A stretch of 64,000 nt of DNA from Candidatus Wildermuthbacteria bacterium (GCA_016181405.1 JACOZJ010000003.1:42749-106748), one strand, 5' to 3'; shown: positions 6,696 to 54,345, numbered from the stretch's first letter. A program made the numbers and translations. Notes: generated from the sequence alone by a model not told the origin.

Positions 6696-7220
6696 ATGCA
6701 AAAAGGAGTTGTAAGAAAAAGGCGTACTTCCCAGCTGTCCGAATACGGAAAACAGCTGCAAGAAAAGCAGGAGTTAAAGAATCAGTATAACTTGCGGGAA
6801 CGTCAGTTTCGTCACTATATTGAGAATGCGCTGGAAAAAAGCGGCGCTCAAAATGCAGAGGAACAACTTTTGCAGCATTTAGAGAGACGTCTGGATAATG
6901 TGGTGTTTCGTATGGGCGTGGCGGAAACACGCAAGCAAGCCCGTCAGTTAGTTTCTCATGGGCATATTCGGGTAAACGAAAAGAGAGTTCTGGTCCCTTC
7001 TTATCAGACAAAACGAGGCGACAAAATATCCGTTCGCCCGAATTCGCAGGAAAACGTATTTTTTAAAAACCGAAAACTGGCGCTTAAAAAATATGAGTCT
7101 CCAAGTTGGCTAGAGCTTCACAAGGAGAATTTGGAGGCAGAAATAAAAGGTGCGCCGGGGCCGGAGGAAATAGGAGTTACGGTCCAGATTCCTTTGGTTT
7201 TTGAGTTTTATTCCAGATAA
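6696..7220 (+). CDS. rpsD: 30S ribosomal protein S4
   Basis: ...YGKQLQEKQELKNQYNLRERQFRHY...LERRLDNVVFRMGVAETRKQARQLVSHGHI (S4 domain). Confidence 0.93.
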   Translation: MQKGVVRKRRTSQLSEYGKQLQEKQELKNQYNLRERQFRHYIENALEKSGAQNAEEQLLQHLERRLDNVVFRMGVAETRKQARQLVSHGHIRVNEKRVLVPSYQTKRGDKISVRPNSQENVFFKNRKLALKKYESPSWLELHKENLEAEIKGAPGPEEIGVTVQIPLVFEFYSR

Positions 7221-7239
7221 TCAATAAGTAATTTTGCAT

Positions 7240-8058
7240 ATGATTCCTTTGTCGCAACCAACAAAAGTGGTCGAAAGCAAGCAGAACTTAGGTGTATTCG
7301 TAATCGAGGGTCTTTATCCGGGCTATGGCATTACCATCGGGAACAGTTTGCGGCGCGTACTGTTGTCTTCCTTGGAGGGCGCTGCAATAACACAGGTAAA
7401 GATCAAGGGAGTAGATCACGAATTTTCTACTCTGCCGGGAGTGCTTGAAGATGTGATTATGATTTTGCTGAATCTCAAGCAAATGCGTTTCCGTATGTAT
7501 GGCGAGGAGCCGCAAACGGCAAGCTTAAAGGTGAAGGGTGAGCGAGAAATAAAGGCCTCCGATTTTAAACTCCCGCCTTCTTTAGAGCTTGCGAATGGCG
7601 ATCTTACAATTGCGCATACCACGGATAAATCAACGGAGTTCGAAATGGAAATTCGGGTGGAGAGAGGTATTGGGTATGTGCCCGCAGGCGATCGCAAAAA
7701 AGAAAAACAAGAAATTGGGAGTATTGCGCTCGATGCTATTTTTACACCCATGAAACGCGTAAGTTCAAAGGTAGAAAATATGCGCGTGGGAGATCGTACC
7801 GATTTTAATCGCCTTACTTTGGAAATCGAGACTGACGGCACCATAACTCCAGAAGAAGCGTTTTATCAGGCCACTGATGTGTTGCTGAAACAATTTGAAG
7901 TAGTAATGAGTGGGGTAAAGGAAATTGCGGAGGAGAAAATGGCAGCTGTGGTCGAGGAAGGAAAAGATGAGGGTGAAAAAAGTCCGAAGAAAGTAGAAAA
8001 GAAAGCAAAAACCTTAAAACAGACAAAGGAGAAAAAAACGACCAAGAGTAAGGCATAG
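7240..8058 (+). CDS. rpoA: DNA-directed RNA polymerase alpha subunit; N-terminal domain only, with a Lys/Glu-rich tail in place of the alpha-CTD
   Basis: ...FVIEGLYPGYGITIGNSLRRVLLSSLEGAAI... is the alpha-NTD. The last ~45 aa (EEKMAAVVEEGKDEGEKSPKKVEKKAKTLKQTKEKKTTKSKA) are low complexity. Position is rpsD-rpoA-rplQ. Confidence 0.9.
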   Translation: MIPLSQPTKVVESKQNLGVFVIEGLYPGYGITIGNSLRRVLLSSLEGAAITQVKIKGVDHEFSTLPGVLEDVIMILLNLKQMRFRMYGEEPQTASLKVKGEREIKASDFKLPPSLELANGDLTIAHTTDKSTEFEMEIRVERGIGYVPAGDRKKEKQEIGSIALDAIFTPMKRVSSKVENMRVGDRTDFNRLTLEIETDGTITPEEAFYQATDVLLKQFEVVMSGVKEIAEEKMAAVVEEGKDEGEKSPKKVEKKAKTLKQTKEKKTTKSKA

Positions 8059-8064
8059 TTTGTT

Positions 8065-8415
8065 ATGAAGAAACGAAAAGCCGGGAGAATACTTTCGAGA
8101 AAGAAAAGCGTGCGTAATGCTCTGCTTATTTCTGTTATGCGTGCGTTAGCGCAGAAAGAAAAGGTGCAACTTACCGAAGCCAAGGCAAAAGAAATAGCCC
8201 CGTTAATGGAACATCTGGTTACGAAAGCGAAAAGCGATAATTTGCATGCGCGCCGTGAGTTGCTTCGGTATTTTCCCGCTTCACTTGTGAAGAAAATGTT
8301 GGAAGAAATAGGCCCGCGGTATCGCGAGCGGCAGGGTGGGTATACCCGAGTTATAAAAACCATTCCTCGAAAGTCTGACGGAGCTAAGATGGCCATAGTG
8401 GAATTTGTGAAATAG
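8065..8415 (+). CDS. rplQ: 50S ribosomal protein L17
   Basis: 116 aa directly after rpoA; ...RELLRYF...GGYTRVIKTIPRKSDGAKMAIVEFV. Confidence 0.92.
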   Translation: MKKRKAGRILSRKKSVRNALLISVMRALAQKEKVQLTEAKAKEIAPLMEHLVTKAKSDNLHARRELLRYFPASLVKKMLEEIGPRYRERQGGYTRVIKTIPRKSDGAKMAIVEFVK

Positions 8416-8419
8416 ATTT

Positions 8420-8776
8420 ATGGAAACGATTGAGAGAAAAACTCATACCATAGACGCGACTGACCAGAAGTTTGGCCGTTTGGCAGTTCGCGTGGCCCTT
8501 TTGCTACGAGGGAAAGCAAAGTCCGCATTTGCTTCTAATAAAGATGTAGGGGATTTTGTGATTGTGAAAAACGTTCAGCGCATGCAGTTTTCCGGAAAGA
8601 AACTCGGCCAAAAATCATATTACTATCATTCAGGTTATATAGGCAGTTTGCGTGAAGCAAAGTTGGGAGAGTTGTTCAACAATCGGCCTAGTGAAGTTTT
8701 GAGAAAATCGGTATGGGGAATGTTGCCAAAAAACAAACTTCGGCCTAAACAAATAAACCGCCTAAGCTTTGAATAA
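8420..8776 (+). CDS. rplM: 50S ribosomal protein L13
   Basis: ...IDATDQKFGRLAVRVALLLRGKAK...YYYHSGYIGSLRE... Confidence 0.92.
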   Translation: METIERKTHTIDATDQKFGRLAVRVALLLRGKAKSAFASNKDVGDFVIVKNVQRMQFSGKKLGQKSYYYHSGYIGSLREAKLGELFNNRPSEVLRKSVWGMLPKNKLRPKQINRLSFE

Positions 8777-11920: not shown

Positions 11921-12928
11921 ATGTTCATTAGCAAAATCGGCATCGACTTGGGTACATGCAATTCACTGGTTTTTGTTCCCAAAAAGGGAGTGGTGTTGTG
12001 CGAACCTTCGGTTGTTGCAGTTTCTTTGGCCGATAATCGCATTCTGGCGGTAGGGGAAGCGGCCAAAGAGATGACCGGGCGCACTCCAGATACTATTCAG
12101 GTATACCGGCCCTTACGGGATGGCGTGATTGCGGATTACCGGGTGACCTTGGCTATGATTCGATATTTTTTGCGTCGTATTATTCCGAAATACCAATTTA
12201 TAAAGCCGGAAGTATTGGTTTCCGTGCCGGCCGGAATCACCTCAACTGAACGCCGCGCCGTGATTGAAGCTACGCATCAGGCTGGGGCGAGGGCCGCGTA
12301 CGTGGCAAAGGAACCCATACTGGCTGCGATTGGGGCTGGTATTCCAATAAACTCTTCTTCGGGGCATATGATTGTGAATATTGGCGGAGGCACTACCGAG
12401 GTTGCGGTTATCTCCTTGGGGGGCGTTGTGGTGGCAACATCGTTGCGTGTAGCCGGCGACAAGATTGACGAAGCAATTTCAGATTACATCAAAAGAAGCC
12501 ATAACCTTGCGATAGGGGAAACGACCGCCGAAGAAATCAAAATAAAAATTGGGACCGCAATGCCTGAAAAAACAGAAACCGTGATGGAAATCCGTGGGCG
12601 CGACTTGATTCACGGACTCCCCAAAAATATCAAGATTTCTTCCAATGAACTGGCTGTGGCTATCCAAGAACCACTCGATGAGACCATCGCTACTATCAAA
12701 ACAGTACTTCGTGAAACGCCGCCTGAACTCTCAGCCGATATTATGGATAAGGGAATGATTTTATCGGGCGGAGGCGCTCTTTTAAGAAACATTGATCAGC
12801 GAATTTCCCAGGCAATCGGAGTGCCGTGTTTTGTGGCAGATGATCCATTGACATGTGTGGCGCGCGGTGCGGGCGTCGTGCTCGATAGCTTGGATATTTT
12901 CAAACAAAGCATTATGAGCAAGCGGTAA
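11921..12928 (+). CDS. mreB: Rod-shape determining actin homolog MreB (copy 1)
   Basis: IGIDLGTCNSLVFV...EPSVVAV...GGGTTEVAVISLGG... Confidence 0.92.
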   Translation: MFISKIGIDLGTCNSLVFVPKKGVVLCEPSVVAVSLADNRILAVGEAAKEMTGRTPDTIQVYRPLRDGVIADYRVTLAMIRYFLRRIIPKYQFIKPEVLVSVPAGITSTERRAVIEATHQAGARAAYVAKEPILAAIGAGIPINSSSGHMIVNIGGGTTEVAVISLGGVVVATSLRVAGDKIDEAISDYIKRSHNLAIGETTAEEIKIKIGTAMPEKTETVMEIRGRDLIHGLPKNIKISSNELAVAIQEPLDETIATIKTVLRETPPELSADIMDKGMILSGGGALLRNIDQRISQAIGVPCFVADDPLTCVARGAGVVLDSLDIFKQSIMSKR

Positions 12929-12943
12929 TTTTGCAAAACACAA

Positions 12944-13681
12944 ATGGTTCAAAATCCACAAGTGGATAAGCAATCATTGTTAAAGAGATTAGCCGAACGG
13001 GGAGGACTATCGCATGCGTATCTGTTCTCTGGGAACGATGAAAAGCAGAAAGACGCATTGGTAGCAGATCTCGTCGCATCGCTTCACATTCATGCAGAAG
13101 ACCGCATTATTCTTGAACCGGTTCAAGACGAAATCACTATTGTACAGATACGCGAACTCTCTTCGTTTTTCAGTATGACTGCGTGGAACTCCACGCATAA
13201 AGTTGCGCTTCTCCGCCATGTGCATACCATGAATCGAGAAGCGCAGTCGGCCTTCCTAAAGCTTTTGGAAGAACCGAAAGGGGATGCTATATTTTTTTTG
13301 CTTACTGAGTATCCAGATATGCTTTTTGACACTATCCGTTCTCGCGCGCAAGAATTTAAGTTTTACTCATTCGTTCCGCCTGAGGTTTTCGACGATACGA
13401 TTGGTGAACTCCAGAAACTTCAGAAGGCAGATCTCGGCACGCGTTTTGGCTATGCCAAAAAACTTGCTGACGAGCCAGAACGTATTCAGCATCTTTTGCA
13501 TCAATGGTTGCTCGCAATTCGACAGATGCTTCGTACACAACTTGAGAAAAATCCTCAAGATGTCCCCGCGACAGTGCGGGCAATCCGAACTATTCAGGAA
13601 ACCCTTCTGCTTTTGCGGACTACCAATGTCAGTCCACGTCTCGCTCTAGAGCGCGTTATGCTTAACCTCGCGGCAAATTGA
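12944..13681 (+). CDS. holB: DNA polymerase III delta-prime-like clamp-loader subunit
   Basis: ...LSHAYLFSGNDEKQKDAL...NREAQSAFLKLLEEP... are AAA+ clamp-loader motifs. Confidence 0.7.
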   Translation: MVQNPQVDKQSLLKRLAERGGLSHAYLFSGNDEKQKDALVADLVASLHIHAEDRIILEPVQDEITIVQIRELSSFFSMTAWNSTHKVALLRHVHTMNREAQSAFLKLLEEPKGDAIFFLLTEYPDMLFDTIRSRAQEFKFYSFVPPEVFDDTIGELQKLQKADLGTRFGYAKKLADEPERIQHLLHQWLLAIRQMLRTQLEKNPQDVPATVRAIRTIQETLLLLRTTNVSPRLALERVMLNLAAN

Positions 13682-13721
13682 TAGCCTCGACACAGAAGAA
13701 GGACTTTGATACAATGCGGAT

Positions 13722-14279
13722 ATGTATCAAGAGATTCTCCAGACAGTGAAGCCAGAGATGGAGAAAGCCCTAGGTTTTTTTCAGGGTGAGCTGGGGAAAA
13801 TCCGGACCGGGCAAGCAACTCCTTCCTTGGTAGAAGACGTGCAGGTAAACCTGTTTGGCCAAAAGATGCCTTTGAAGCAGTTGGCGGGAATTTCTTGTCC
13901 CGACCGCCGCCAGATTCTTATCCAGCCGTGGGATAAGTCCTATGTGGAATCTATTGAAAAGGCATTGCATGCAGCGTCTTTGGGGACAAGTCCGGTGGTA
14001 GAAGGGGCTACGGTTCGTGTGCACTTGCCTCAACTCACACAGGAATATCGTGAGCAGCTAGCCAAGCTGCTTGGGGAGAAAGCGGAAGAAGCAAAAAAGA
14101 CTATCCGCAGGTGGCGGGAGAGCGCATGGGAAGAAATTCAGGAAAAAGCAAAAGAAGGTGAAGTTCGCGAAGACGATAAGTTTCGTGCGAAAGATGAGCT
14201 GCAGAAGCTCATAGACGAATATAATAAAAAAATTGAGGAGCTGGTAGAGAGGAAAAAACAGGAAATTGAAGTAGTATGA
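13722..14279 (+). CDS. frr: Ribosome recycling factor
   Basis: 185 aa; ...GKIRTGQATPSLVEDVQVNLFGQKMPLKQLAGIS... Confidence 0.93.
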   Translation: MYQEILQTVKPEMEKALGFFQGELGKIRTGQATPSLVEDVQVNLFGQKMPLKQLAGISCPDRRQILIQPWDKSYVESIEKALHAASLGTSPVVEGATVRVHLPQLTQEYREQLAKLLGEKAEEAKKTIRRWRESAWEEIQEKAKEGEVREDDKFRAKDELQKLIDEYNKKIEELVERKKQEIEVV

Positions 14280-15343
14280 CAATTTTTATTGCGCTTCTAT
14301 CCATTGGTATTTTAGTCATCCTGCATGAGCTAGGGCATTTTTTTGCCGCCAAAAAATTCGGAATAAAAGTGGAGGAATTTGGGATTGGCTTGCCTCCGCG
14401 CCTTTTCGGAAAAAAGTACGGGGAAACCATATATTCTGTAAATGCTTTGCCCATAGGAGGGTTTGTGCGCATGGAGGGCGAAGAAAAACGGAGTGACAGT
14501 CCCGACAGTTTCAGCAAAAAGCCTCTCTGGCAGCGATTTTGCGTGGTAGCAGCTGGCGTAGTGGTGTTTTGGGTTGTTGCGGTTGTCATCTTCACTCTTT
14601 TGGGCGCGACTACTGGGATTCCCACCGCACTGAATGATGAGCAAGAAGATGTGATAAATCCGCACGTGCGGGTTATCGGGATTGCGGCCGATTCTCCCGC
14701 TGCTTCTGCGGGTTTGAAAATAGGAGATACAATTACGTATGTTGCCGGCCAGGCGGTTTCCACCGTGCGCGAAGTACAGGAACTTTCTGCCGCACACACC
14801 GGAGAAGAAGTTTTGCTCAATGTTCAACGGGGTGAAAAAACTCTTGAATTATCGCTTGTCCCCCGGGAAACGCCGCCTGCAGGCGAGGGACCTATTGGGA
14901 TAGCGCTCACGAGGGCGGGTTTTGTACGATATGCATGGTATGAAGCTCCTTGGCAGGGATTGGTGCGAACGTGGCATATCACAACCTCTATTTTTGCGAC
15001 GTTTGGTACGCTTATTTCTCAAGTTACGGGTGGGAAAGGGCTTCCTGCTGGGACTCAAGTTTCGGGGCCGGTGGGAGTTGTTGATTTGCTCAAAAATTCT
15101 CTTGCGCTCGGCGTATCTTCATTTCTTAGTTTCGTGGCGATAATCTCGGTCTACCTTGCAATCTTTAATACGCTGCCGATTCCGGCTCTTGACGGGGGGA
15201 GAATGTTCTTTTTGCTGCTCGAGGGGATACGCAGGAAACCCCTTTCTGAAAAACTTGAACAGCGGCTAATTCTTATTTCGTTTTTGGTTCTTATACCGTT
15301 TATCCTTTGGGTTACGGTAAACGATATTCGCCGGCTATTTTAG
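14276..15343 (+). CDS. rseP: RIP metalloprotease RseP (M50 site-2 protease with PDZ)
   Basis: HELGHFFAAKKFGIKVEEFGIGLPP plus the C-terminal NTLPIPALDGG motif. Confidence 0.9.
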   Translation: MTIFIALLSIGILVILHELGHFFAAKKFGIKVEEFGIGLPPRLFGKKYGETIYSVNALPIGGFVRMEGEEKRSDSPDSFSKKPLWQRFCVVAAGVVVFWVVAVVIFTLLGATTGIPTALNDEQEDVINPHVRVIGIAADSPAASAGLKIGDTITYVAGQAVSTVREVQELSAAHTGEEVLLNVQRGEKTLELSLVPRETPPAGEGPIGIALTRAGFVRYAWYEAPWQGLVRTWHITTSIFATFGTLISQVTGGKGLPAGTQVSGPVGVVDLLKNSLALGVSSFLSFVAIISVYLAIFNTLPIPALDGGRMFFLLLEGIRRKPLSEKLEQRLILISFLVLIPFILWVTVNDIRRLF

Positions 15344-15350
15344 TTGTACT

Positions 15351-16595
15351 ATGCGCCAGTCCCAACTTTTTACCAAAACGCAAAAAACGCTTCCGAAAGG
15401 CGAGGAAAGCAAAAATGCCCAGCTTTTAATTCAGGCTGGGTTTATTCACAAAGAAATGGCAGGGGTGTACTCGTACTTGCCACTTGGACTTCGGGTTCTT
15501 AAAAACATAGAGCAAATTATTCGGGAAGAGATGAATGCTATTGGTGGGCAAGAGTTGCTCTTAACCGGGCTTCAAAATCCTGAAATATGGCAAACATCGG
15601 GCCGTTGGGCAGACGAGGCTGTGGACATATGGTTTAAAACAAAGTTAAAAAACGATACGGAAATTGGGTTAAGCTGGACGCACGAAGAGCCTTTAACCGC
15701 GCTTATGCGCAACCATATTTCTTCGTACCGGGATCTGCCAGTGTACGTGTACCAAATGCAAACAAAGTTTCGGAACGAGTTGCGCGCGAAAAGCGGTATT
15801 ATGCGCACGCGCGAATTTATTATGAAAGACTTGTACTCGTTTTGCAAAAATGAAGAAGAGCACAAGGCATTTTATGAAAAGGCAAAGCAAGCATACATAA
15901 AAATATTCGATCACGTTGGCTTGGGGCATGTAACCTATGTTACCATGGCTTCTGGCGGAAGTTTTGCGAAATACTCGCACGAGTTTCAAACGCTAACCGA
16001 GGCAGGTGAAGACATTATTTACATAGACGAACAAACGAAGGAGGCGGTGAACGAAGAAATAATAGACGACAAAGATTTGGGATACGACAAAAACAAGCTG
16101 CGAAAAGAAAAGGCGGTAGAGGTGGGAAATATTTTTACCCTGGGAACTAAATACTCGGAAGTGCTCGGTTTGCAGTATCAAGACGATCAAGGAAATAAAC
16201 GGCCCGTGTTTATGGGCAGTTACGGAATTGGTCCGGCTCGCGTTATGGGTACAATTGCCGAGTTATTCGCCGACGAGAAAGGTCTTGTGTGGCCTTCGTC
16301 AGTAGCGCCTTTCCTCACCCATTTACTTTGTTTGTCGGATTCAACGGAAGAAGCCGACGCGTTGTATGAGCAGTTGCAAAGTGTGGGGATTGAGGTATTG
16401 TATGATGATAGGCACGGCATGAGCGCAGGCGAAAAATTTGCCGATGCCGATTTAATCGGCATTCCCTGGCGCCTTGTTATAAGCGACAAAACACTTGCGT
16501 CAAAAAGCGTGGAAGTGAAAGCACGGCAAAGTAAAGAGATTAAGCTTGTGTCGTTGCGAGAACTGCCAAGCTATCTGCATTCGAAAATTTCTTGA
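15351..16595 (+). CDS. proS: Prolyl-tRNA synthetase, compact form without the INS editing domain
   Basis: MRQSQLFTKTQKTLPK...AGFIHKEMAGVYSYLPLG...FRNELRAKSGIMRTREF... Confidence 0.88.
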   Translation: MRQSQLFTKTQKTLPKGEESKNAQLLIQAGFIHKEMAGVYSYLPLGLRVLKNIEQIIREEMNAIGGQELLLTGLQNPEIWQTSGRWADEAVDIWFKTKLKNDTEIGLSWTHEEPLTALMRNHISSYRDLPVYVYQMQTKFRNELRAKSGIMRTREFIMKDLYSFCKNEEEHKAFYEKAKQAYIKIFDHVGLGHVTYVTMASGGSFAKYSHEFQTLTEAGEDIIYIDEQTKEAVNEEIIDDKDLGYDKNKLRKEKAVEVGNIFTLGTKYSEVLGLQYQDDQGNKRPVFMGSYGIGPARVMGTIAELFADEKGLVWPSSVAPFLTHLLCLSDSTEEADALYEQLQSVGIEVLYDDRHGMSAGEKFADADLIGIPWRLVISDKTLASKSVEVKARQSKEIKLVSLRELPSYLHSKIS

Positions 16596-16602: not shown

Positions 16603-17661
16603 ATGCGATTTATCAGAAACACATTATCCCGATTGGGGAATGACATCGCGATTGATTTGGGCACTGCCAATTCGTTGGTTTATGTAAAGGGAAAGGGGAT
16701 TGTAATTCAGGAACCCACGGTAGTTGCTATTAATCAAAAGACTGGAAGGGTACTCGCTATAGGGGAGGAAGCGAAAAAAATGGTGGGGCGTACTCCTATC
16801 CATATTGTAGCAACGCGGCCGTTGGCAAAAGGCGTTATTTCGGACTTCGAGGTTACCGAACAAATGCTTAGGTATTTCATCGCCAAAGCGTGTCCCCGAA
16901 AGTTTATTTTTAGTCCCGGGCCTCGCGTAATTGTGGGGATTCCTTTTGGCGTAACGGAAGTTGAAAAAAAGGCAGTTCGCGATGCCACGCTTTCCGCCGG
17001 CGCACGTGAGGTTTTTCTCATTGAAGAACCAATGGCTTCTGCCATTGGTGCGCGGCTTGCGGTGCAGGAACCCGGAGGGAATTTCATTGTGGATATCGGC
17101 GGGGGCACTACAGAAGTTGCTGTTTTGTCGCTTGGAGGGGTGGTATACGCAAAGTCACTTCGGATTGCGGGCGATAAATTAAACGAAGATATTATTCATT
17201 TTGCGCAGGAAGAATACAAGCTTTTCATTGGAGAACGAACCGCAGAGGCGCTCAAGATTGGAATTGGTTCTGCGTATCCATTGAAAGAGCGGAAAGAAGT
17301 GCCCCTCCGGGGCAGAAATTTGGTTACGGGTTTGCCCGAAGAGATTATGGTTTCCGATACAGATATCCGCCGCGCAATGGAGCGTTCTGTGCGGCAAATA
17401 GTCAACGAAGTTAAAGCCACGGTAGAAGAAACGCCGCCCGAACTCCTCGCAGACATTATGTGCAGAGGAATTTTTCTTGCGGGAGGAGGAGCGCTCCTTC
17501 GTGAACTCGACACGCTCATTACGAAAGAAACAAAAATTCCCACGCGTATTGTAGAGGATCCTTTGACCGCGGTGGTGAGAGGTGCGGGTCTGGTTCTTGA
17601 AAATCTCGATGAACTCTGCGATGTATTGTCGGAAGCAGAAGATCTAGAGCCGCCCAGATAG
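16603..17661 (+). CDS. MreB-family actin homolog (copy 2)
   Basis: IAIDLGTANSLVYV...EPTVVAI...DIGGGTTEVAVLSLGG; ATG at 16603 inside the longer track ORF. Confidence 0.9.
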   Translation: MRFIRNTLSRLGNDIAIDLGTANSLVYVKGKGIVIQEPTVVAINQKTGRVLAIGEEAKKMVGRTPIHIVATRPLAKGVISDFEVTEQMLRYFIAKACPRKFIFSPGPRVIVGIPFGVTEVEKKAVRDATLSAGAREVFLIEEPMASAIGARLAVQEPGGNFIVDIGGGTTEVAVLSLGGVVYAKSLRIAGDKLNEDIIHFAQEEYKLFIGERTAEALKIGIGSAYPLKERKEVPLRGRNLVTGLPEEIMVSDTDIRRAMERSVRQIVNEVKATVEETPPELLADIMCRGIFLAGGGALLRELDTLITKETKIPTRIVEDPLTAVVRGAGLVLENLDELCDVLSEAEDLEPPR

Positions 17662-17664
17662 ACT

Positions 17665-17952
17665 ATGATTTCTCCCAAAGAAGTACAACACATCGCAAAA
17701 CTTGCTCGTATCGAGTTAACCGACAGGGAACTTATACAGTTTCAGAAAGAGCTTGCTGGTGTTTTGGCCTATTTTGAAATCTTGCAGGAAGTCAACGTTT
17801 CTTCCGTGGCGCCCATGACTCATTCGGTACTCTTGGAAAATGTGTATCGAAGTGATGAATTTAAGGCAAAAACCGATGACATTGCGCAGAAACTTCTCCA
17901 GATGGCCCCAGAAACAAAAAACGGATATTTGAAAGTGAAGCAAATTTTATAA
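17665..17952 (+). CDS. gatC: Asp/Glu-tRNA amidotransferase subunit C
   Basis: 95 aa; MISPKEVQHIAKLARIELTDRELIQFQKEL..., directly upstream of gatA. Confidence 0.9.
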   Translation: MISPKEVQHIAKLARIELTDRELIQFQKELAGVLAYFEILQEVNVSSVAPMTHSVLLENVYRSDEFKAKTDDIAQKLLQMAPETKNGYLKVKQIL

Positions 17953-17978
17953 AACCTACGAATTACGAATACTTGCGA

Positions 17979-19394
17979 ATGGACGAATTTACGATTCGAC
18001 AACTGCACGAAAAACTGAAAAACAAAGAATTTTCTGCGCAAGAAATCGTAGAAAGTTTTCTCAAAAACATTGAGCAGAAAGATGCAAATCTGCATGCTTT
18101 TATTACTCCGACAAGGGAACTAGCGCTCGCGCAGGCAAAAGAAATTGATGAAAAAATCGCGCGCGGAGAAAAAGTTTCTCCGCTCGCGGGCGTTCCCTGT
18201 GCAGTGAAAGATTCTATTCTCGTCGATGGCGTGCGTTGCACCGCAGGATCCAAGATTTTGGAAAACTATATTGCGCCTTACGATGCCACGGTTACGCAAA
18301 AACTTCGTACAGAGGGCGTTTTGTTTGTCGGAAAAACAAATCTCGACGAGTTTAATATGGGTGCTTCCACCGAAAACTCGGCTTTCGGCGTTACAAAAAA
18401 CCCTTATGATGAAACAAGGGTGGCCGGAGGAAGTTCCGGAGGATCTGCGGCAAGCGTAGCTGCAAACGAAGCTCTTGTGGCTTTGGGAGCCGATACGGGC
18501 GGCTCTATACGCCTTCCTGCCGCATTTTGCGGCGTGGTGGGGTTAAAACCTACCTACGGCACTGTTTCCCGGCATGGATTAATTGCGATGGCGTCTTCCC
18601 TCGATCAGATAGGGCCGATCGCGAAAACCGCAGAAGACGCAGAAACAGTTTTTGAGACAATCTGCGGAAGGGATGCTTTCGACGCAACCTCCCTTGCGTA
18701 TCAGTACGAATCTCTTTCCGATTTTGATGTGAAAAACCTCCGCATAGGTGTGGCCAAAGAATTTTTTGGCGAAGGGCTTATGCCTCAAATCGCAGAGCTA
18801 GTAAAGGCGGCAATCAAAAAGCTTGAGGATGCTGGCGCTACCGTACAGGAAATAAGCCTTCCTCACGCCAAATACGCCTTAGCGGCCTATTATATCATTA
18901 ACACCTCTGAAGTATCGGCGAACCTCGCTCGTTTTGACGGCATTCGTTATGGCAAATCTGCCAGTAGGGGACAAAACTTGCTCGATGTATACCTGCAAAC
19001 CAGGGGAGAATATCTCGGCGCGGAAGTAAAACGCAGAATTATGCTCGGCACATATGCGCTTTCCGCCGGCTATTACGATGCATATTATCTTAAGGCGCAG
19101 AAAGTTCGCACCCTTCTCCAGCAAGATTTTACGGCCGCCTTTACAGATGTAGATGTAATTATGGGGCCGCCCAGTCCATTTCTCCCTTTTAAGATCGGGG
19201 AGCGCACCGAAGATCCGTTAACCATGTATCTTGTGGATTTGTACACGGTGCCTGTCAATCTCGTTGGATTACCAGCGCTCTCCCTTCCGATAGGATATAC
19301 GCAAGGGCTCCCAGTGGGTTTGCAGATTATTGGGAAGCCGCTCCAAGAAAATTTACTGTTTGCGATTGCAAAGGATTTGGAAAAATTGGCATAG
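17979..19394 (+). CDS. gatA: Asp/Glu-tRNA amidotransferase subunit A
   Basis: Amidase signature ...GGSSGGSAASVAANEA...GADTGGSIRLPAAFCG... Confidence 0.93.
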   Translation: MDEFTIRQLHEKLKNKEFSAQEIVESFLKNIEQKDANLHAFITPTRELALAQAKEIDEKIARGEKVSPLAGVPCAVKDSILVDGVRCTAGSKILENYIAPYDATVTQKLRTEGVLFVGKTNLDEFNMGASTENSAFGVTKNPYDETRVAGGSSGGSAASVAANEALVALGADTGGSIRLPAAFCGVVGLKPTYGTVSRHGLIAMASSLDQIGPIAKTAEDAETVFETICGRDAFDATSLAYQYESLSDFDVKNLRIGVAKEFFGEGLMPQIAELVKAAIKKLEDAGATVQEISLPHAKYALAAYYIINTSEVSANLARFDGIRYGKSASRGQNLLDVYLQTRGEYLGAEVKRRIMLGTYALSAGYYDAYYLKAQKVRTLLQQDFTAAFTDVDVIMGPPSPFLPFKIGERTEDPLTMYLVDLYTVPVNLVGLPALSLPIGYTQGLPVGLQIIGKPLQENLLFAIAKDLEKLA

Positions 19395-19952: not shown

Positions 19953-20023
19953 CGCGGGGTAGTGGAGTAGTACCATGCGAGGCCCATAACCTTGTGACGC
20001 CGGTGCAAATCCGGCCCCCGCAA
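19953..20023 (+). tRNA. Initiator tRNA-fMet (CAU), 71 nt, CCA not encoded
   Basis: Hand-folded cloverleaf. It has the C1xA72 mismatch and near-identity to the E. coli tRNA-fMet ends (CGCGGGG...CCGGCCCCCGCAA). Anticodon loop is CCCAUAA. Confidence 0.85.
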
Positions 20024-20050
20024 CATATAGCCTTATCCTGCAAATTGGGA

Positions 20051-20122
20051 GGCTGCGTAGCTCAGTGGTAGAGCGAGGGACTCATAAGCCCTAGGCCGGA
20101 GGTTCGATCCCTCCCGCAGCCA
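20051..20122 (+). tRNA. tRNA with CAU anticodon (elongator Met or Ile2)
   Basis: Cloverleaf GGCUGCG...CGCAGCC-A, anticodon loop CUCAUAA, T-arm GGAGG-UUCGAUC-CCUCC. Confidence 0.88.
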
Positions 20123-20201
20123 CACGATTTTTGTTCCGTCTCTTCGGCGGACCACAAGGATCAGTACGAATAAAAAACGCCTCCCGCTATGGCGGGCAAA
20201 G

Positions 20202-20279
20202 GCGGGCGTAGCTCAGCTGGTTTAAAGCGCTTCCCTGTCACGGAAGAGATCGTGGGTTCGAATCCCATCGCCCGCGCCA
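20202..20279 (+). tRNA. tRNA-Asp (GUC), CCA encoded
   Basis: Acceptor GCGGGCG/CGCCCGC-G-CCA, anticodon loop CUGUCAC, T-arm GUGGG-UUCGAAU-CCCAU. Confidence 0.9.
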
Positions 20280-20285
20280 AAAAAC

Positions 20286-20314
20286 TTGAATAATGCTTCA
20301 GAATGCGGTATGGT
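20286..20314 (+). promoter_or_regulatory. Promoter TTGAAT-N17-TATGGT
   Basis: Read directly from the sequence. It is 7 nt after the tRNA-Asp CCA and upstream of the first islet ORF. Confidence 0.4.
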
Positions 20315-20379
20315 AGCGTCGCCCGTGAAAAGTCCCAAGTATCACGGGAGTACGCACATTTTCGTGGTGGAGGACCGCA

Positions 20380-20823
20380 ATGAACGGCCAAAGGATGCTC
20401 CCTAACTGTTGCGAGGAATGGATTTTGGATCCTGCTTGGAAGTGGGGTTTGAAAATCCCCGTATTGGAGATGTTCTACTGTGCTCCGTGTGGGCACCCGT
20501 GGCAGTGCACGGGGGATGGTGTTTTCATGGAGCTTTCCACGAGGACTTCTTACTTCGTGAAAGAGCGCAACGGTTTCCCATACTTATCCCCAGCAGATGG
20601 ACCGCAGCTTGCGCTTGAGCGCTGCTGCTATCTCAATCTCATCGAGGTGATTCCGGGGAGAGGCGGAGAATTCATCTGCCCGATCTGCGGGGCTCTGTGG
20701 GCAATGAATGAAGAGACGGTGAACGGACTCTTCCGCGAGGTTTACAGCAACACCAAAACGGGTCAGCGTTTTGCAAGGAAGGAGGGAAGCCCTCGCGACT
20801 ATTTCGTTCCTTTGAACCAATAG
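20380..20823 (+). CDS. Hypothetical Cys-rich protein (CxxC...CxxC, zinc-ribbon-like)
   Basis: GGAGGA SD 5 nt before the ATG. Motifs YCAPCGHPWQC and FICPICG. A stem plus T-run follows. Confidence 0.65.
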   Translation: MNGQRMLPNCCEEWILDPAWKWGLKIPVLEMFYCAPCGHPWQCTGDGVFMELSTRTSYFVKERNGFPYLSPADGPQLALERCCYLNLIEVIPGRGGEFICPICGALWAMNEETVNGLFREVYSNTKTGQRFARKEGSPRDYFVPLNQ

Positions 20824-20935
20824 CGCCAGCCGACGCCCAAGAAAAATACCGCGAACCCTTCGAGTTCGTGGTCCTTTTTTTGCGCTGTGGATTGAAACGA
20901 TTTATGAGCTTTTGGATTTTGAACTCCGGTGGGTA

Positions 20936-20964
20936 TTGACGGAACATACTCCCGGGGGTATTCT
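20936..20964 (+). promoter_or_regulatory. Promoter TTGACG-N17-TATTCT
   Basis: Hexamers and spacing read directly from the sequence. Confidence 0.45.
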
Positions 20965-21011
20965 CATGTAATATTCGGATTTCCATTTTATCTGTCTGTT
21001 GGAGGTGAGGA

Positions 21012-21443
21012 ATGTTAGAGGTTCGTACCTTTGAATTCGAGGGCACCGACGCCCAGGAAGTCTACATTCGCCTGCAAGAAAAGTACTGGCCCTTCCCCAA
21101 TCCGTGTCTGCTCATAGATCCAGAGAGATTAAACGACTGGGCAAATGGTGGCTGGCAGCAAATGCCGCATCCTTGTCTCTGCGAGGATGGTGTTCATGGC
21201 TGCCCCAAGCACCTTGTTTACGTCCACGCAGTTGTGGATGCTCTCGCAGAAAGCAGAATTCGGCGCGCTGTGCTACGTTTCATCGCACCCAACTTGCTGG
21301 TCTTGGTTCGCGCAACAGTTTCATTCCCCCGAAGATGGATACCGGCTTCAGTATCCATTATCGCCCTCGAGGTTGATGTCCGAATTGGAGAGGTTCCAAA
21401 GTTCCTCCTGGCGCGAGGCGTCAACAATCAGCGCCCTCCCTGA
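21012..21443 (+). CDS. Hypothetical protein
   Basis: 143 aa with a GGAGGTGAGG SD. No recognisable motif. Confidence 0.6.
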   Translation: MLEVRTFEFEGTDAQEVYIRLQEKYWPFPNPCLLIDPERLNDWANGGWQQMPHPCLCEDGVHGCPKHLVYVHAVVDALAESRIRRAVLRFIAPNLLVLVRATVSFPRRWIPASVSIIALEVDVRIGEVPKFLLARGVNNQRPP

Positions 21444-21529
21444 CACGGAAGGCGCTTTTCTTTTCGGTCTGGAAAATCTGTCGGGGGAATGATAGAAAAT
21501 AGACAGAGTAAGCCGTAGGGAGGAAATCT

Positions 21530-21718
21530 ATGCAGGCCGCTTTTGTTCAAGCACTCAAAGAGCAAATACGGCGGCGGGAGTTTCCGTCGCGAATCACCGA
21601 GGATGCATTCGAGATCAAATATGGCAAACTGTCGCCAGAAATAAGGCAATATGCCCGCAAATTACTCGAGGAAGCCGGCGTAGTAATTGAACCTAGGCGG
21701 AAAGGAGGGAAAAAATGA
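21530..21718 (+). CDS. Hypothetical small protein (62 aa, basic C-terminus)
   Basis: GGGAGG SD. The stop overlaps the next start (ATGA). Confidence 0.55.
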   Translation: MQAAFVQALKEQIRRREFPSRITEDAFEIKYGKLSPEIRQYARKLLEEAGVVIEPRRKGGKK

Positions 21719-22155
21719 TGCCTGAAATACGGCGATTTACTGAAGAGGAATTCCGGCGAAAACTCGCGGACCGAGCATACATACATATTCTTGGACTGTT
21801 TGAACCGCGGCAACTTGGCGTCATGCTCTTTCTTACACGACTCGAGTTCTTTCATTATCCACCTGGTTCGGCACGAAACTCTCTATTCGAGCTCCTCGCA
21901 GTCAACTGGCAGGAAATGCTTTGGGTGGGAGCTTGCATTCCATCCCCGGAGATCACTATCGCTCGCCGTGTTGCTGCCGAAAGTGGACTGCGCGTTACGC
22001 ACAGCGGTCGCGCCCTGCTGTTTCTTCTCTACGAGAATGTTTTCTTGCTCGAAAGCATTCCACACTTGCAGGATTTCAGCTCTACGGCGGAAAGGCTTAG
22101 GGCCGAAGAACGAGAAATTCAACGAATCCAAGCGGGGAGAGCAGCCCGCAACTAG
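21715..22155 (+). CDS. Hypothetical protein (146 aa)
   Basis: Translationally coupled to 21530-21718. A terminator hairpin lies at about 22180-22215. Confidence 0.55.
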   Translation: MMPEIRRFTEEEFRRKLADRAYIHILGLFEPRQLGVMLFLTRLEFFHYPPGSARNSLFELLAVNWQEMLWVGACIPSPEITIARRVAAESGLRVTHSGRALLFLLYENVFLLESIPHLQDFSSTAERLRAEEREIQRIQAGRAARN

Positions 22156-22271
22156 CTCTTTGGAAACATGTGAATAGCAAAGCGGTCGAAAAATACCTCG
22201 TCCGCTTTTCTTTTGCGCATTTTTCATACTCATGAGCCGGCCTAAGGGGAGGACTGGAAAATTTTTGAAGA

Positions 22272-22814
22272 ATGAACTATATTGCAGCATGCCTCCCTAG
22301 GGGAAGTGTGGGGCAGGACGAGGAGGTTGTTGTGATACAAACACCAAGTATGCTTCGAAGGCTTGGGGGGCTTGCGAAGCGTATCTCGCAAAACGGGAGC
22401 GAGAACGAGGCAAGCAGGCTTCTCGACGAAGTGTTCCGCCTGCATCGCGAGGAGAAGCTCACCGAAAACAGCTTCTACACAATACTGGAAGCGCTTCTCG
22501 AAACAGCTGAATCACGCCACGCCGCCAGAGTAGCAGAAATGTTGACGTGGAATATCACGGTGGCTAGCCCGAGACGGCGCACCAGAATTGCGCTTATGGC
22601 ACTCTTCATCCGCGTGGGAACCCGCAAGCACATTCCATGTCTACAGGCATTCGCGGAGTTCGTCAAACAGATTCTGTATCCCGATGAAACGTGGAAACCT
22701 CTTAGCGCCGGACCAATAGCCGCCTCTCCCGAATTCTTCCAACAACTCGATCAGGCAGATATTCGCGCCGCAATCGCCGCCTGCGAGGCGCGCGAAGACA
22801 TACCTGACCACTAA
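22272..22814 (+). CDS. Hypothetical helical protein
   Basis: 180-aa ORF. An alternative GTG start at 22332 has a better SD (GAGGAGG). Confidence 0.55.
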   Translation: MNYIAACLPRGSVGQDEEVVVIQTPSMLRRLGGLAKRISQNGSENEASRLLDEVFRLHREEKLTENSFYTILEALLETAESRHAARVAEMLTWNITVASPRRRTRIALMALFIRVGTRKHIPCLQAFAEFVKQILYPDETWKPLSAGPIAASPEFFQQLDQADIRAAIAACEAREDIPDH

Positions 22815-22942
22815 AGGCACTCAGTGTCTGCAAGAGTCAACGTACGCGCTGGCTCTTTCTTTTTGCGCTGGAAAACTAAACAGAGATGTGGTAAAAGCAA
22901 AGAGGTTATCCTGCGAAAGATTTGACGCAGAGGGAGGTTGCG

Positions 22943-23314
22943 GTGGCAGCATCAACTATCCTCATTAGGTGCGTAGATCCCAGATTCGAAGGCGAGTGGG
23001 CTCCGACCATTCAGAAGGCCATAGGGCCCCACTATAGCCTTACCGAGTTCGGGGGCTTTGATACCTTGGGTGAGGAGGGCTTTCAGCAACTTGCGCGGAA
23101 AATCTCCGCAATACGCAAGATGAACTCCGCCGTTCACCGAATTATCGTTACGTTCCATACGGATTGCGCTTGGTGCGGTGCGCTGCGGATGAATGACGAA
23201 GAGCAGCGGACGCGTGCTTTTGCTCTCGCGCGTCAAATTGCGTATCTGTTTGTCCCGGTGGAAGTTTTTGTAGGCAAAGTTGAGGAGGGTTGGATAACAC
23301 TCCTCAACAGCTAG
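22943..23314 (+). CDS. Hypothetical protein with beta-carbonic-anhydrase-like Cys/His motifs (C-x-D-x-R ... H-x-x-C)
   Basis: GTG start 5 nt after GAGGGAGG. Motifs RCVDPRF and FHTDCAWCG. Confidence 0.5.
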   Translation: MAASTILIRCVDPRFEGEWAPTIQKAIGPHYSLTEFGGFDTLGEEGFQQLARKISAIRKMNSAVHRIIVTFHTDCAWCGALRMNDEEQRTRAFALARQIAYLFVPVEVFVGKVEEGWITLLNS

Positions 23315-23421
23315 GGGCGTAGCTTGACGGCATCGCCTTTTCTTTTTTGTTGTGAAATGTGGTATGCTCCTGTAGGAGAGCGCGCGTAAAGCTCCTACAA
23401 CTCTTAGAGAAGGAACGGAGC

Positions 23422-23784
23422 ATGAAGGAAAATACACTTGTGCTTATAGCCGATCCAACTGATCCGCAAGTTTGGAATCCCACATTGCCTCCTGATCCTT
23501 CCAACCACAAACCTCTGTATGGGATCGTCGAATGTGTACTCGATAAATCTGGTCCCTATGAGGTTCGCCGCTGTCGTGTGAGGCATGATAATAGCGAGGA
23601 ACCCTTAATAGTGCCGATGGCCAGGCTTCTTCTCATTCGGGTATTATCGCCCGAAGATGCACGCGCAGGCACGGTAAATGAGGTATTCAATAGGTGGGCA
23701 CCGATAATTGTAAAGGAGGGAGCGCTGAAGAAAATGCTGTCTAACCAGCGCGATACTCTCCGCAAGATGATCCCTCCAACGTAA
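23422..23784 (+). CDS. Hypothetical protein (120 aa)
   Basis: ATG preceded by GAAGGAACGGAG. A terminator follows at about 23817-23860. Confidence 0.55.
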   Translation: MKENTLVLIADPTDPQVWNPTLPPDPSNHKPLYGIVECVLDKSGPYEVRRCRVRHDNSEEPLIVPMARLLLIRVLSPEDARAGTVNEVFNRWAPIIVKEGALKKMLSNQRDTLRKMIPPT

Positions 23785-23933
23785 AGGTGATAGCTACACG
23801 CTACCGCCCGACAAAAGGCTATGCACGCCTTTGGTGTGCACGGCCCTTTCTTTTTTGGAATAGGGTTTTATTCTGTTAGCAACACCCTTGCTGGCAGACC
23901 GAAGCCCTTTGACCAACGGGGAGGAGGTGGGCA

Positions 23934-24227
23934 GTGACTACAAAATCGAAGGCCGTTGAGGTCGAGGAGGCGTTCGTCAAACTTGTCGAGCTCACTCTTG
24001 CCTGCAGAAGGGGCGGCTTCGGGTGCAATCCCCTTCAGCATAGGGAGGGCCACCCGGTTACCCCGGAAATGATGGTGGCAGTTATGACCCCAATCCGGGT
24101 CTGGCAACTCGAAAACCCCAAACTCCGAACTGAGGAACGTGTCAGCGGTTCGCTGGCATGGCAACTCGCACAAAAGCTGCAGGCCAAACGCAATCCTGCC
24201 CAAAACCCATTGCGTAAGCCCGGGTAG
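23934..24227 (+). CDS. Hypothetical protein (97 aa)
   Basis: GTG start after GGAGGAGGTG. A 9-bp stem terminator lies at 24238-24285. Confidence 0.55.
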   Translation: MTTKSKAVEVEEAFVKLVELTLACRRGGFGCNPLQHREGHPVTPEMMVAVMTPIRVWQLENPKLRTEERVSGSLAWQLAQKLQAKRNPAQNPLRKPG

Positions 24228-24317
24228 CTCCTAGCACCCCATACCGTTACTGCATCTCTGCAGTGAAGGTATGGGGTATTCTTTTGAAAAATTGGAAAAG
24301 TGGAGTTATAGTGAAGT

Positions 24318-24896
24318 ATGAAACGGATTTTTCTTATACATGGCTGGGGTGGTTCGCCGGAAGAAGGTTGGACGCCCTGGTTAAAGGGTAAACTGGAAAA
24401 GCGCGGATTCGAGGTATATGTGCCTGCTATGTCAGATTCGAAGCATCCCAGAATGGACGCGTGGTTGGCGAATTTGCGAGAAACTGTTCGAGTTCCAGAT
24501 CAAAACTGCTACTTTGTTGGCCATAGCTTAGGTTGCATTACTATTCTTCGGTATTTGGAAACTTTGGAAGAAAACCAAAAAGTTGGCGGCGCGGTTCTTG
24601 TGGCTGGTTTTAGCGACATAAACATTACAGTTGGGCCAGATGAAAACGTTCTGGAGATTCAAAGTTTCTTCCAAACCAACGTTGATTTTGCGGCTATCCG
24701 AAAACACTGCGACAAGTTTGTCGCAATTCATTCAGACAACGATCCTTATGTTGATCTGCGGTATGCTGATATTTTCCGCGAAAATCTGGGCGCAAAAGTA
24801 CTGGTGGAGAAGCATAAGGGCCATTTTAGCGGTGATGACGGCATTATGGAACTTCCGAGCGCCCTCGAAAACACTTTGCAGCTAGCATCAGATTAA
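24318..24896 (+). CDS. Alpha/beta serine hydrolase of the YdeN/RBBP9 type
   Basis: MKRIFLIHGWGGSPEEGW...YFVGHSLGC (GxSxG nucleophile elbow). A TTGAAA-N17-TATAGT promoter lies upstream. Confidence 0.75.
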   Translation: MKRIFLIHGWGGSPEEGWTPWLKGKLEKRGFEVYVPAMSDSKHPRMDAWLANLRETVRVPDQNCYFVGHSLGCITILRYLETLEENQKVGGAVLVAGFSDINITVGPDENVLEIQSFFQTNVDFAAIRKHCDKFVAIHSDNDPYVDLRYADIFRENLGAKVLVEKHKGHFSGDDGIMELPSALENTLQLASD

Positions 24897-52706: not shown

Positions 52707-52770
52707 AGCTCAAACTCCTCAATTCTTGTCCCGCCGTAGCTTTAAGCCAAGGCGGATAGCCTTATACACT

Positions 52771-52795
52771 CCCACCAACCCTTTGGTGGGTTCTT
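52771..52795 (+). terminator. rpsP terminator cccacca-accctt-tggtggg plus TTCTT
   Basis: 7-bp GC stem followed by a short T-run. Confidence 0.5.
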
Positions 52796-52822
52796 GACAT
52801 TTTTGGGGAAGTATGCTATACT
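52794..52822 (+). promoter_or_regulatory. Consensus promoter TTGACA-N17-TATACT
   Basis: Perfect -35 element, 5 of 6 in the -10 element, 17-nt spacer. Confidence 0.65.
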
Positions 52823-53164
52823 GTGGCTAACAATAAAATACTGGTTTTGCGGGTGGAAGGAGAGAGCCACCGGCAAATAATAAAGACACAGACGATTGCA
52901 CATATCACAATTACCCAATCAGCTCTCCCCAAAAGGAGAGTTGGTTGTTTAGAGAATGTCCTGCCTCTGCGAATATAAAGATACTCCCGGAGGTAGCACA
53001 TTCAAAACATCACAGCACCTTAACCATCAAGCAAGGGGGAAGAGGAACAGAAAATTCTTCCCCCATACCCTTCAGCCCACCACGAGTATCGAATGGCGAA
53101 TTGAAGGGTAACGATAGCACCCAAAAATTTCCTTCCTGTAAAGGGAAGGGGAAAGGAGAGAGCC

Positions 53165-53275
53165 ATGGTGCACCGACCTCCACGCCCGGAGACGGTGATG
53201 ACGCTTCCGCTGCCGCGTTGCGGCTGCGGGGCACGCATCGCCCCGGGTGGCTACTGTACTGGAAAGTGCAAGTAG
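53165..53275 (+). CDS. Cys-rich micro-protein (36 aa: MVHRPPRPETVMTLPLPRCGCGARIAPGGYCTGKCK)
   Basis: Translated by hand. GGAAAGGAGAGAG SD 3 nt upstream. CxC...CxxxC pattern. Confidence 0.45.
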   Translation: MVHRPPRPETVMTLPLPRCGCGARIAPGGYCTGKCK

Positions 53276-53283
53276 CCCTCAAC

Positions 53284-53388
53284 GGAGTCGGAGGAAAAGC
53301 ACTCATTGATTGCACTCATAGCATACTCTCCGACTCCTTAAGTTTAAGACCGTTGCGAAAAGCGCAGATCATAGATTTAAGGAGTCGG
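53284..53388 (+). promoter_or_regulatory. Three-segment alternative-hairpin element (1:2 versus 2:3)
   Basis: ggagtcggag (53284-93) pairs with ctccgactcc (53328-37). ccgactccttaa (53330-41) pairs with ttaaggagtcgg (53377-88). The two pairings are mutually exclusive. Confidence 0.5.
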
Positions 53389-53420
53389 ATAGATTGCGCA
53401 CCTTATGAAAGGAGGACGCC

Positions 53421-53606: not shown

Positions 53607-53872
53607 GAGCGTGCACAATCCCAGCAACCAAGCCCTGGCCCTGCGAGATCTACCAAGATTTCGCAGGGCACCCCAACTGAATCCCGAATTCATTTCGAGA
53701 TTCAACAGGGGTTAGTACATAAAAATCCATTCGTCTTCAGCGATTTGGCCAAGGCACTTGACTGAATCGTTGGAGACGAGAAGTATGGTGAGATGCGATT
53801 CGTCGAAGACCTCTTCTTGAGTGTCGAAGAACGACAAAGAAAACTCACGAAGAGTGCCAAGAAAGGCAGAAA

Positions 53873-54307: not shown

Positions 54308-54345
54308 CGCGACCACTAAGTAGAAGGATGCGTCTCACCACGCAT

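Follow-up and report, generated by a model that had tools for sequence, protein, structure and literature searches.

What are eight small genes, most of them orphans, doing directly downstream of a tRNA cluster in a groundwater bacterium, and how did they come to be there? The locus belongs to a metagenome-assembled genome (MAG) of Candidatus Wildermuthbacteria (GCA_016181405.1), which is of groundwater origin, and was analysed within a stretch of 64,000 nucleotides (JACOZJ010000003.1:42749-106748), hereafter the window, whose own numbering is used throughout. A preliminary description of this DNA had pointed to a 4-kb islet of eight open reading frames (ORFs) beside a tRNA-fMet/Met/Asp cluster, and eight ORFs, all on the + strand, are indeed present next to tRNAs at 19953-20279. 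We lean, with modest confidence, towards regarding the islet as a compositionally foreign, integrase-free and lineage-specific zone that gains and loses single-gene cassettes, whose products most likely work independently of each other. The evidence comes from a sister species, from which the window differs by whole cassettes with breakpoints in the terminator-tail/promoter junctions, and from the composition and expression signals of the genes themselves.

The islet extends from 20296 to 24290 and consists of seven units, each closed by a hairpin followed by a T-tract; two of the eight genes share a unit. The anchors, genes (o1 to o8, given as coding sequences) and units are as follows.

19953-20279, + strand: cluster of tRNA-Met, tRNA-Met and tRNA-Asp, left anchor of the islet (ARAGORN and Rfam)
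20296-20909, + strand: o1 cassette, with a bidirectional terminator at 20848-20881 (ΔG -11.9 kcal/mol); limits from blastn breakpoints
20380-20823, + strand: o1, 147 amino acids (aa)
20910-21476, + strand: o2 cassette, with a promoter-like sequence at 20936-20964, a terminator at 21430-21464 and the junction motif at 21457-21476
21012-21443, + strand: o2, 143 aa
21530-22215, + strand: o3-o4 bicistronic unit, with a terminator at 22179-22215 (ΔG -12.9 kcal/mol) followed by TTTTGCGC
21530-21718, + strand: o3, 62 aa, pI 10.1
21715-22155, + strand: o4, 146 aa
22272-22875, + strand: o5 unit, with a terminator at 22832-22865 and the second copy of the junction motif at 22856-22875
22272-22814, + strand: o5, 180 aa, or 22332-22814 from a GTG start, 160 aa
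22876-23346, + strand: o6 unit, with a terminator at 23315-23346 and a promoter region that aligns as homologous to the o7 promoter of the sister species
22943-23314, + strand: o6, 123 aa
23347-23857, + strand: o7 unit, with an extended -10-like box TGgTATGCT at 23360-23368 and a terminator at 23817-23853 (ΔG -19.3 kcal/mol)
23422-23784, + strand: o7, 120 aa
23858-24290, + strand: o8 unit, with a terminator at 24236-24285 (ΔG -30 kcal/mol)
23934-24227, + strand: o8, 97 aa, pI 9.9, GTG start
24318-24896, + strand: serine hydrolase (PF06821 by Pfam), right flank of the islet

The CCA end of tRNA-Asp lies at 20279. The islet does adjoin the tRNA, as first described, but its variable part begins 17 nt past the CCA, at 20296, and not 7 nt past it, since the flank is conserved with the sister species up to 20295. 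The translated ORFs match the NCBI entries MBI2098353-59 (locus tags HYT49_01675-01705, on a 264-kb contig) exactly; o8 is called in Logan assemblies and has no NCBI call, and the NCBI start of o1 is Met50. Logan contigs from four SRR121134xx runs carry the locus with 100% identity. Direct reading of the sequence places the o4 start in an ATGA overlap with the stop of o3, with the o4 Shine-Dalgarno (SD) sequence inside the 3' end of o3, as expected for the translationally coupled pair that had been proposed. For o5, the GTG at 22332 is most likely the true start rather than the ATG at 22272, because GAGGAGG stands 5 nt upstream of the former, while the latter has no SD and lies inside a promoter-like TGGAAA-17-TATATT (22255-22283).

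Related loci were fetched via the gene just upstream of the tRNAs. The closest genome, RIFCSPHIGHO2_01_FULL_48_27b (locus L001, the same as L003, L004 and L016-L025), here called the sister species, has a DNA identity to the window of about 90% in the upstream 5 kb and of 81-88% further downstream, and tRNA-Asp with the 16 nt that follow it is 100% identical. Between tRNA-Asp and the hydrolase, the sister species holds two genes only, homologues of o2 (38% identical at the amino acid level) and o7 (47%). The 24 contigs examined, which come from several groundwater samples, likewise have this two-gene arrangement, their o2 homologue being identical. No homologue of the eight genes was found at any of the more distant Wildermuthbacteria loci fetched; in at least two of these lineages a gene of the pyrE type comes directly after tRNA-Asp, pyrE itself after 10 nt in L006 and a pyrE-like ORF in L002. 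This comparison of the interval between tRNA-Asp and the hydrolase had been suggested as a check; the genes are not conserved across the clade with a backbone-like composition.

By blastn, the breakpoints between window and sister species fall at 20295/20296, 20909/20910, 21476/21477 and about 23857. The o1 unit is one clean indel of 614 bp (20296-20909) directly after the conserved tRNA flank and is absent from the sister species, as is the o8 unit. The promoter and 5' untranslated region (UTR) of o2 are 80% identical in the two species and its terminator matches at 47 of 48 positions; the coding DNA between them has no detectable similarity. The o7 terminator is homologous as well. Among codons for identical amino acids, the fraction changed between the species is 0.23 in gatA, 0.34 in the upstream gene and 0.20 in the PPIase gene, as against 0.48 in o7 and 0.65 in o2, and NG86 estimates agree with these fractions. 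Since the synonymous divergence of o2 and o7 is high and their non-coding flanks are conserved, the excess points to alleles having been replaced through recombination in the flanks, or else to a mutation rate that is raised locally. A diversity-generating retroelement was rejected as the source of this divergence: no pair of template and variable repeats was found, and the divergence spans whole proteins.

A further boundary is the o2-o7 junction of the sister species. In a three-way alignment it is a hybrid, its left part corresponding to the o2 terminator of the window and its right part to the window's o5-terminator/o6-promoter region. The motif TTTCTTTT-N4-CTGGAAAA stands at both of these places in the window (21457-21476 and 22856-22875, 1399 bp apart), which are its two occurrences in the 64 kb (0.01 expected), both within the islet. 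The sister species has two copies too, flanking its o7 homologue, and none of 23 loci of other genomes contains the motif. Only the combined motif is specific to the islet, because TTTCTTTT tails also close backbone terminators (36380, 37303 and 56784); the tails by themselves had been considered as an islet mark and were rejected. The pattern is compatible with insertion of an o3-o5 block in the lineage of the window as well as with a deletion in the sister lineage that took place between direct repeats.

We infer recombination at these junction repeats as the route of entry and exit. Cassettes would enter and leave by recombination across short junctions, namely TTTCTTTT-N4-CTGGAAAA and its relatives, and they would do so without a dedicated recombinase, at a place downstream of the tRNA cluster where synteny is already broken. 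As for the products, they would act independently and not as one system, o2, o7 and o8 being of unknown function and o3 and o4 forming a putative co-translated pair.

The composition of the islet sets it apart from its surroundings. Its G+C content is 0.521 against 0.477 in the rest of the window, and G+C at third codon positions (GC3) of its coding sequences is 0.564 against 0.471 in the backbone, which bears out a shift that had been noted by eye. The G+C content over 4 kb exceeds 0.51 in three stretches only: the islet, 51-58 kb and, marginally, 59.5 kb. Coding potential was assessed with a codon log-odds model trained on backbone genes, with all six frames compared. The annotated frame ranks first in seven of the eight genes, and o1, the weakest of the eight, ties with its own antisense frame. 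Islet genes score from -0.01 to 0.21, which is under the backbone range (mean 0.24, minimum 0.14) or in its lowest part. The islet ORFs are real and coding.

The expression signals of these genes also differ from those of the backbone. A GGAGG lies 5-6 nt ahead of the start in seven of the eight genes (o5 is counted only from GTG 22332, and the o7 site is weaker), including 6 nt before the ATG of o1 and before the starts of both o3 and o4; the chance of GGAGG in a random 15-nt window is 0.016. The claim of strong SD sequences in almost every gene thus stands. The 5-mer core was found in 7 of 47 non-islet ORFs, as against seven of eight islet genes (Fisher p = 1.2e-4), even though the best case was taken for each non-islet ORF by choosing, out of its first 60 in-frame start candidates, the one with the most SD-like context. 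Each of the seven units has a hairpin with a T-tract no more than about 60 nt from its end (ΔG from -9.3 to -30 kcal/mol), and TTTTGCGC follows three of these terminators (20878, 22211 and 22861), again as first described. Promoters are less uniform. Two in the islet score at least 9 of 12 in a consensus scan, TTGACG-17-TATTCT ahead of o2 is kept in the sister species, and most units have extended -10-like boxes TGnTAnnnT only.

Across the window, most backbone genes have no SD. In several genes that head operons, the start codon (13722, 19411, 50012 and about 24992) is preceded at 6-8 nt by an extended -10 box (TGnTAnAAT), for example TGATACAAT-N7-ATG at 13722. Such a spacing is typical of leaderless mRNAs. 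The backbone appears to be SD-poor and partly leaderless in type. The few SD-led genes outside the islet are rich in GC3 and look acquired, so that an SD together with high GC3 seems to mark non-backbone genes in this genome. Two adjacent genes for class-II (D/K/N) aminoacyl-tRNA synthetases differ in the same respects: that at 60507-61835 is backbone-like (GC3 0.50, no SD), while that at 61889-63196 is SD-led with a GC3 of 0.70 and is probably a horizontally acquired paralogue.

What do the genes encode? The eight are small, soluble and mutually unrelated proteins. None has a transmembrane segment, none resembles another or anything else in the window, and none, o3 and o4 included, matches a family in Pfam, PHROGs, PADLOC or NCBIfam at E < 0.01. 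Sequence searches of the PDB with o1, o2, o4, o6 and o7 returned noise only. Most of the proteins are orphans, but not all eight, as had been thought: o6 belongs to a family of 11 members and o2 and o7 have homologues in the sister species. The Cys-rich, zinc-ribbon-like protein that had been singled out is o1, with nine Cys and two CxxCG..W modules. Its internal duplication, FxCxxCGxxW...G[VL]FxE, scores 48 against 23.9 +/- 4.4 for shuffled sequences, none of 2000 of which reached 48; because this duplication is significant, both the 147-aa gene model and the zinc-ribbon-like description are supported, and o1 may be described as a putative duplicated zinc-knuckle protein. In o2 a motif PHPCxCxDGxxGCP is conserved, and its family numbers two members in a database of 5.8 billion clusters, within the sensitivity of the search. 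Residues 23-60 of o5 match the TPR-like repeats of kinesin light chain (E 1.6e-4), which points to a TPR-like helical protein. A single-sequence AlphaFold2 (AF2) model of o4 had a pLDDT of 41 and was unusable.

The best characterised of the eight is o6, in which beta-carbonic-anhydrase-like motifs had been noticed. A full HMMER scan and a profile search define its 11-member family by an invariant RCVDPRF...H..CAWC, with C10-V-D12-P-R14 and H72-T-D-C75 invariant in 10 of 10 aligned members. Seven of ten members match the Pfam family PF20393, Pro_CA_2 (a "putative carbonic anhydrase" model of 125 positions), end to end below the cutoff, the best at 26.8 bits against a gathering score of 30; o6 itself gives no match, and one member matches PF00484. 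The AF2 model built from the family alignment has a pLDDT of 91.4 and a pTM of 0.86, and in Foldseek its top 12 PDB matches and its top match among the viral structures of BFVD are carbonic anhydrases (E 2e-4 to 3e-3, TM(query) 0.50-0.57). Motif, profile and predicted fold together confirm o6 as a minimal beta-carbonic-anhydrase-like protein. It would be placed near Pro_CA_2, at the border of that Pfam family, with all members of its own family under the gathering score. Shared features are the length of the Pro_CA_2 model (about 125 aa), CxDxR and HxxC zinc-ligand motifs about 60 residues apart and a predicted alpha/beta fold; unlike characterised beta-carbonic anhydrases, it is about half their size, lacks the dimerisation and C-terminal elements and has an extra invariant Cys (HxxCAWC). 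An hhalign comparison of the family with E. coli Can aligned a single segment, in which H72/C75 fall on the known ligands H98/C101, but with E = 0.36 it was not counted as evidence. A literature search on Pro_CA_2/PF20393 and on genomic islands of Wildermuthbacteria found nothing relevant.

The genomic setting of the o6 family is informative in itself. The order nusB-rnc-rpsP-o6 is conserved in four other Parcubacteria (L032, L035, L036/L037 and L038) with G+C contents from 27% to 55%, which suggests a housekeeping rather than an accessory role for the family, whose proteins are 120-130 aa long. In the window, o6 sits in the islet, 30 kb from nusB-rnc-rpsP at 51.0-52.7 kb. A second GC-rich stretch (52707-56870, about 4.1 kb, 0.53-0.59) separates rpsP from the KH-domain/trmD genes; its ORFs have no Pfam match, and it contains no Rfam family. 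Since this is the place taken by the o6-family gene in the four other Parcubacteria, the stretch may represent a second islet, by which o6 was displaced. Homologues of o6 elsewhere occur without any of the other seven genes. In the Wildermuthbacteria genome HYW95 (L029) one stands about 700 nt past a tRNA-Asn; shared flanks of the two o6 cassettes were sought and were not alignable. After that tRNA-Asn, too, small genes without annotation stand in a row (7202-8700): an ORF of 82 aa, the o6 homologue, preceded by a GGAGG SD, an ORF of 64 aa and an AbiEii fragment. A type I restriction-modification (R-M) system comes next.

The islet is 4 kb long, as claimed, but it forms part of a larger variable zone, a mosaic that by blastn runs past the hydrolase to about 28.35 kb. 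The window hydrolase is only 50% identical to the sister copy over 72 residues (tblastn). In the sister species this gene (12136-12450) is cut to 104 aa, which suggests decay of that locus. Between 24318 and 28350 the window also encodes tRNA_bind, YgjP-like, secreted 184-aa, CHRD-like and Germane-domain proteins; the sister species instead has secreted proteins of 497 aa and 213 aa at 12136-15929. The sister species also carries riboflavin kinase and synthase genes (17462-18432) that are missing from the equivalent place in the window.

Several points weigh against the reading of the islet as a foreign zone of cassette gain and loss. The orphan status of o1, o3, o4, o5 and o8 was assessed with profile libraries and 90% clusters, to which o7 adds one sister homologue and an IMG/VR scan; remote-homology searches cover o2 and o6 only. 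Recognisable -35/-10 pairs had been claimed for almost every gene; the TTGACG-17-TATTCT pair is there, but the islet promoters as a whole are not above shuffled sequences, and the regional count of consensus matches, 11 against 6.4 +/- 2.9, is not significant. Acquisition had been suggested by the position next to a tRNA; GC3, codon usage and the SD-led starts in an SD-poor genome make it plausible, but no donor lineage was identified, and both the terminators with TTTCTTTT tails and the extended -10 promoters follow the native style. With signals of this kind, and with o6 inherited vertically among other Parcubacteria, the DNA may have originated inside the clade and not be "foreign" at all. 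Finally, the pattern could equally reflect gain in this lineage or loss in the sister species, and the truncated sister hydrolase and the deletion-compatible hybrid junction favour loss.

The same signals lend themselves to another explanation, in which the eight are native, fast-evolving genes of the clade that arose by relocation, duplication or de novo birth, their SDs and GC3 reflecting needs of expression. Terminators and promoters of native style that are conserved with the sister species would be expected of such genes, as would an o6 that belongs to a Parcubacteria-wide family and has merely been relocated, and the identity of the sequences in several samples fits as well. However, RRF and NusG, housekeeping proteins expected to be well expressed, have neither an SD nor high GC3, the other SD-led, GC3-rich genes look acquired, and the synonymous divergence of o2 and o7 is so far above that of the flanks (0.65 and 0.48 against 0.20-0.34) as to speak against simple vertical descent. 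We consider this explanation unlikely, while giving it more weight than any other competitor.

It is rather improbable that the islet is what remains of a decayed integrative element, a prophage, plasmid or integrative and conjugative element (ICE) that once sat at tRNA-Asp and left moron-like cargo behind. The adjacency to a tRNA, the shift in G+C and codon usage, the apparently autonomous, moron-like units and the small basic proteins with their coupled pair are all in keeping with such an origin. The searches for the element itself were negative. No recombinase family was detected in the eight ORFs, the adjacent upstream gene or the hydrolase, part of the ORFs of the 64-kb window having been scanned, and an integrase is absent from the precomputed Pfam annotation of the L026 neighbours. 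The 22-nt end of the tRNA and the 27-nt end plus flank each occur once in the window (up to 3 mismatches allowed); the lack of an integrase and of a tRNA 3'-end repeat, already remarked upon in the preliminary description, holds for these searches. With tblastn, the eight concatenated proteins found nothing in 50,697 phage and 72,556 plasmid records, and IMG/VR gave no match to the concatenated proteins or to profiles of o2, o6 and o7. Without recombinase, attachment (att) repeat, or phage or plasmid homology, an integrative element is argued against; the differences from the sister species, moreover, are several separate cassette-sized indels and not one element, and o6 is chromosomal and rpsP-linked in other Parcubacteria. 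A 15-nt segment in the loop of the o2 terminator (21437-21451) matches the anticodon arm of tRNA-Asp (20232-20246) at 14 of 15 positions; it was rejected as an att remnant, as chance alone would give about 0.5 such pairs in 5 kb.

The islet shares its architecture with three known kinds of region and fails a defining feature of each. Like tRNA-associated islands, it lies directly past a tRNA, is shifted in G+C and codon usage, is present or absent among relatives and carries cargo of unknown function. It is, however, only 4 kb long, has no integrase, tRNA 3'-end repeat or mobility genes, and differs between species by several cassette-sized indels. Phage morons, known from the work of the Hendrix laboratory, are autonomous promoter-ORF-terminator units between prophage genes. 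The islet resembles them in its single-gene units, each with a terminator and putative expression signals of its own, in its odd composition and in its position at intergenic junctions; its terminators and SDs are clear, while its promoters are detectable only in part and do not exceed the number in shuffled sequences. Unlike morons, it lies outside any prophage between housekeeping flanks, has no phage homology, and its units are stacked head to tail. With integron arrays it has in common single-gene cassettes in the same orientation, mostly of unknown function, that differ among relatives and have a short repeat at their boundaries. Yet no IntI match exists in or beside the islet, and each cassette has its own promoter-like region and SD. 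Whereas integron attC sites are imperfect palindromes, the junction motif is a direct repeat, and the hairpins at the boundaries resemble intrinsic terminators with T-tracts.

A narrower claim is that a conserved junction of terminator tail and promoter, TTTCTTTT-N4-CTGGAAAA, is the site of recombination through which single-gene units are swapped, inserted and deleted. It would explain why o2 and o7 are so divergent, at synonymous sites too, compared with their non-coding flanks, why the motif is confined to boundaries in both species and why the sister junction is an exact hybrid. Stated in this specific form it is doubtful, and we rate its chances as low.

That the eight genes form one multi-gene system, an anti-phage defence or toxin-antitoxin (TA) module with unannotated parts, is very unlikely. 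Here the o3/o4 pair deserves attention: a small, basic protein of 62 aa precedes one of 146 aa, the two genes overlap by 4 nt and end in one terminator, and both their size and the overlap are typical of type II TA modules. In HYW95, moreover, the o6 homologue has an AbiEii fragment and a type I R-M system as neighbours. Unlike type II TA modules, however, o3 and o4 match no TA, Pfam, NCBIfam or PADLOC family, and PDB searches gave noise only. The defence-system check that had been recommended was run with PADLOC and produced no match at E < 0.01, the best being at E 0.013 (SspG, partial) and 0.053. Each unit has its own terminator, the sister species shares only two of the eight genes, and o6 occurs elsewhere on its own; it is this want of co-conservation that argues against a single system.

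In a search for structured RNAs, no Rfam family reached its gathering score in the islet. A sub-threshold match to the RpsF leader at 21420-21532 (25.6 bits, E 0.038, gathering score 37) spans the o2 terminator and the 5' UTR of o3 and is probably due to chance. That the ORFs are spurious, lying in non-coding or RNA-coding DNA, is extremely improbable: codon scores below the backbone, the antisense tie of o1 and this leader speak for it, but the annotated frame is best and a GGAGG well spaced in seven of eight genes, o2, o6 and o7 are conserved as proteins, o1 has its repeat, the o6 model is confident and no Rfam family is found at gathering score.

Overall, the islet is an essentially ordinary variable region, and nothing about it overturns current ideas. 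Three things deserve to be retained: the motif at the junctions, the contrast in SD use between islet and backbone, and a minimal beta-carbonic-anhydrase-like protein. Genomes of the candidate phyla radiation (CPR) combine small size with many unannotated genes, and how these are gained is poorly understood; the locus offers a clean two-species example of the gain or loss of single-gene cassettes without a recombinase. In practical terms, SD-led, GC3-rich genes may flag recent arrivals in this lineage. The 123-aa, rpsP-linked beta-carbonic-anhydrase-like family joins the small conserved CPR proteins that merit biochemical testing. If the proposed route is true and general in CPR bacteria, it would give them a simple, recombinase-independent way of sampling small genes from the community pool.

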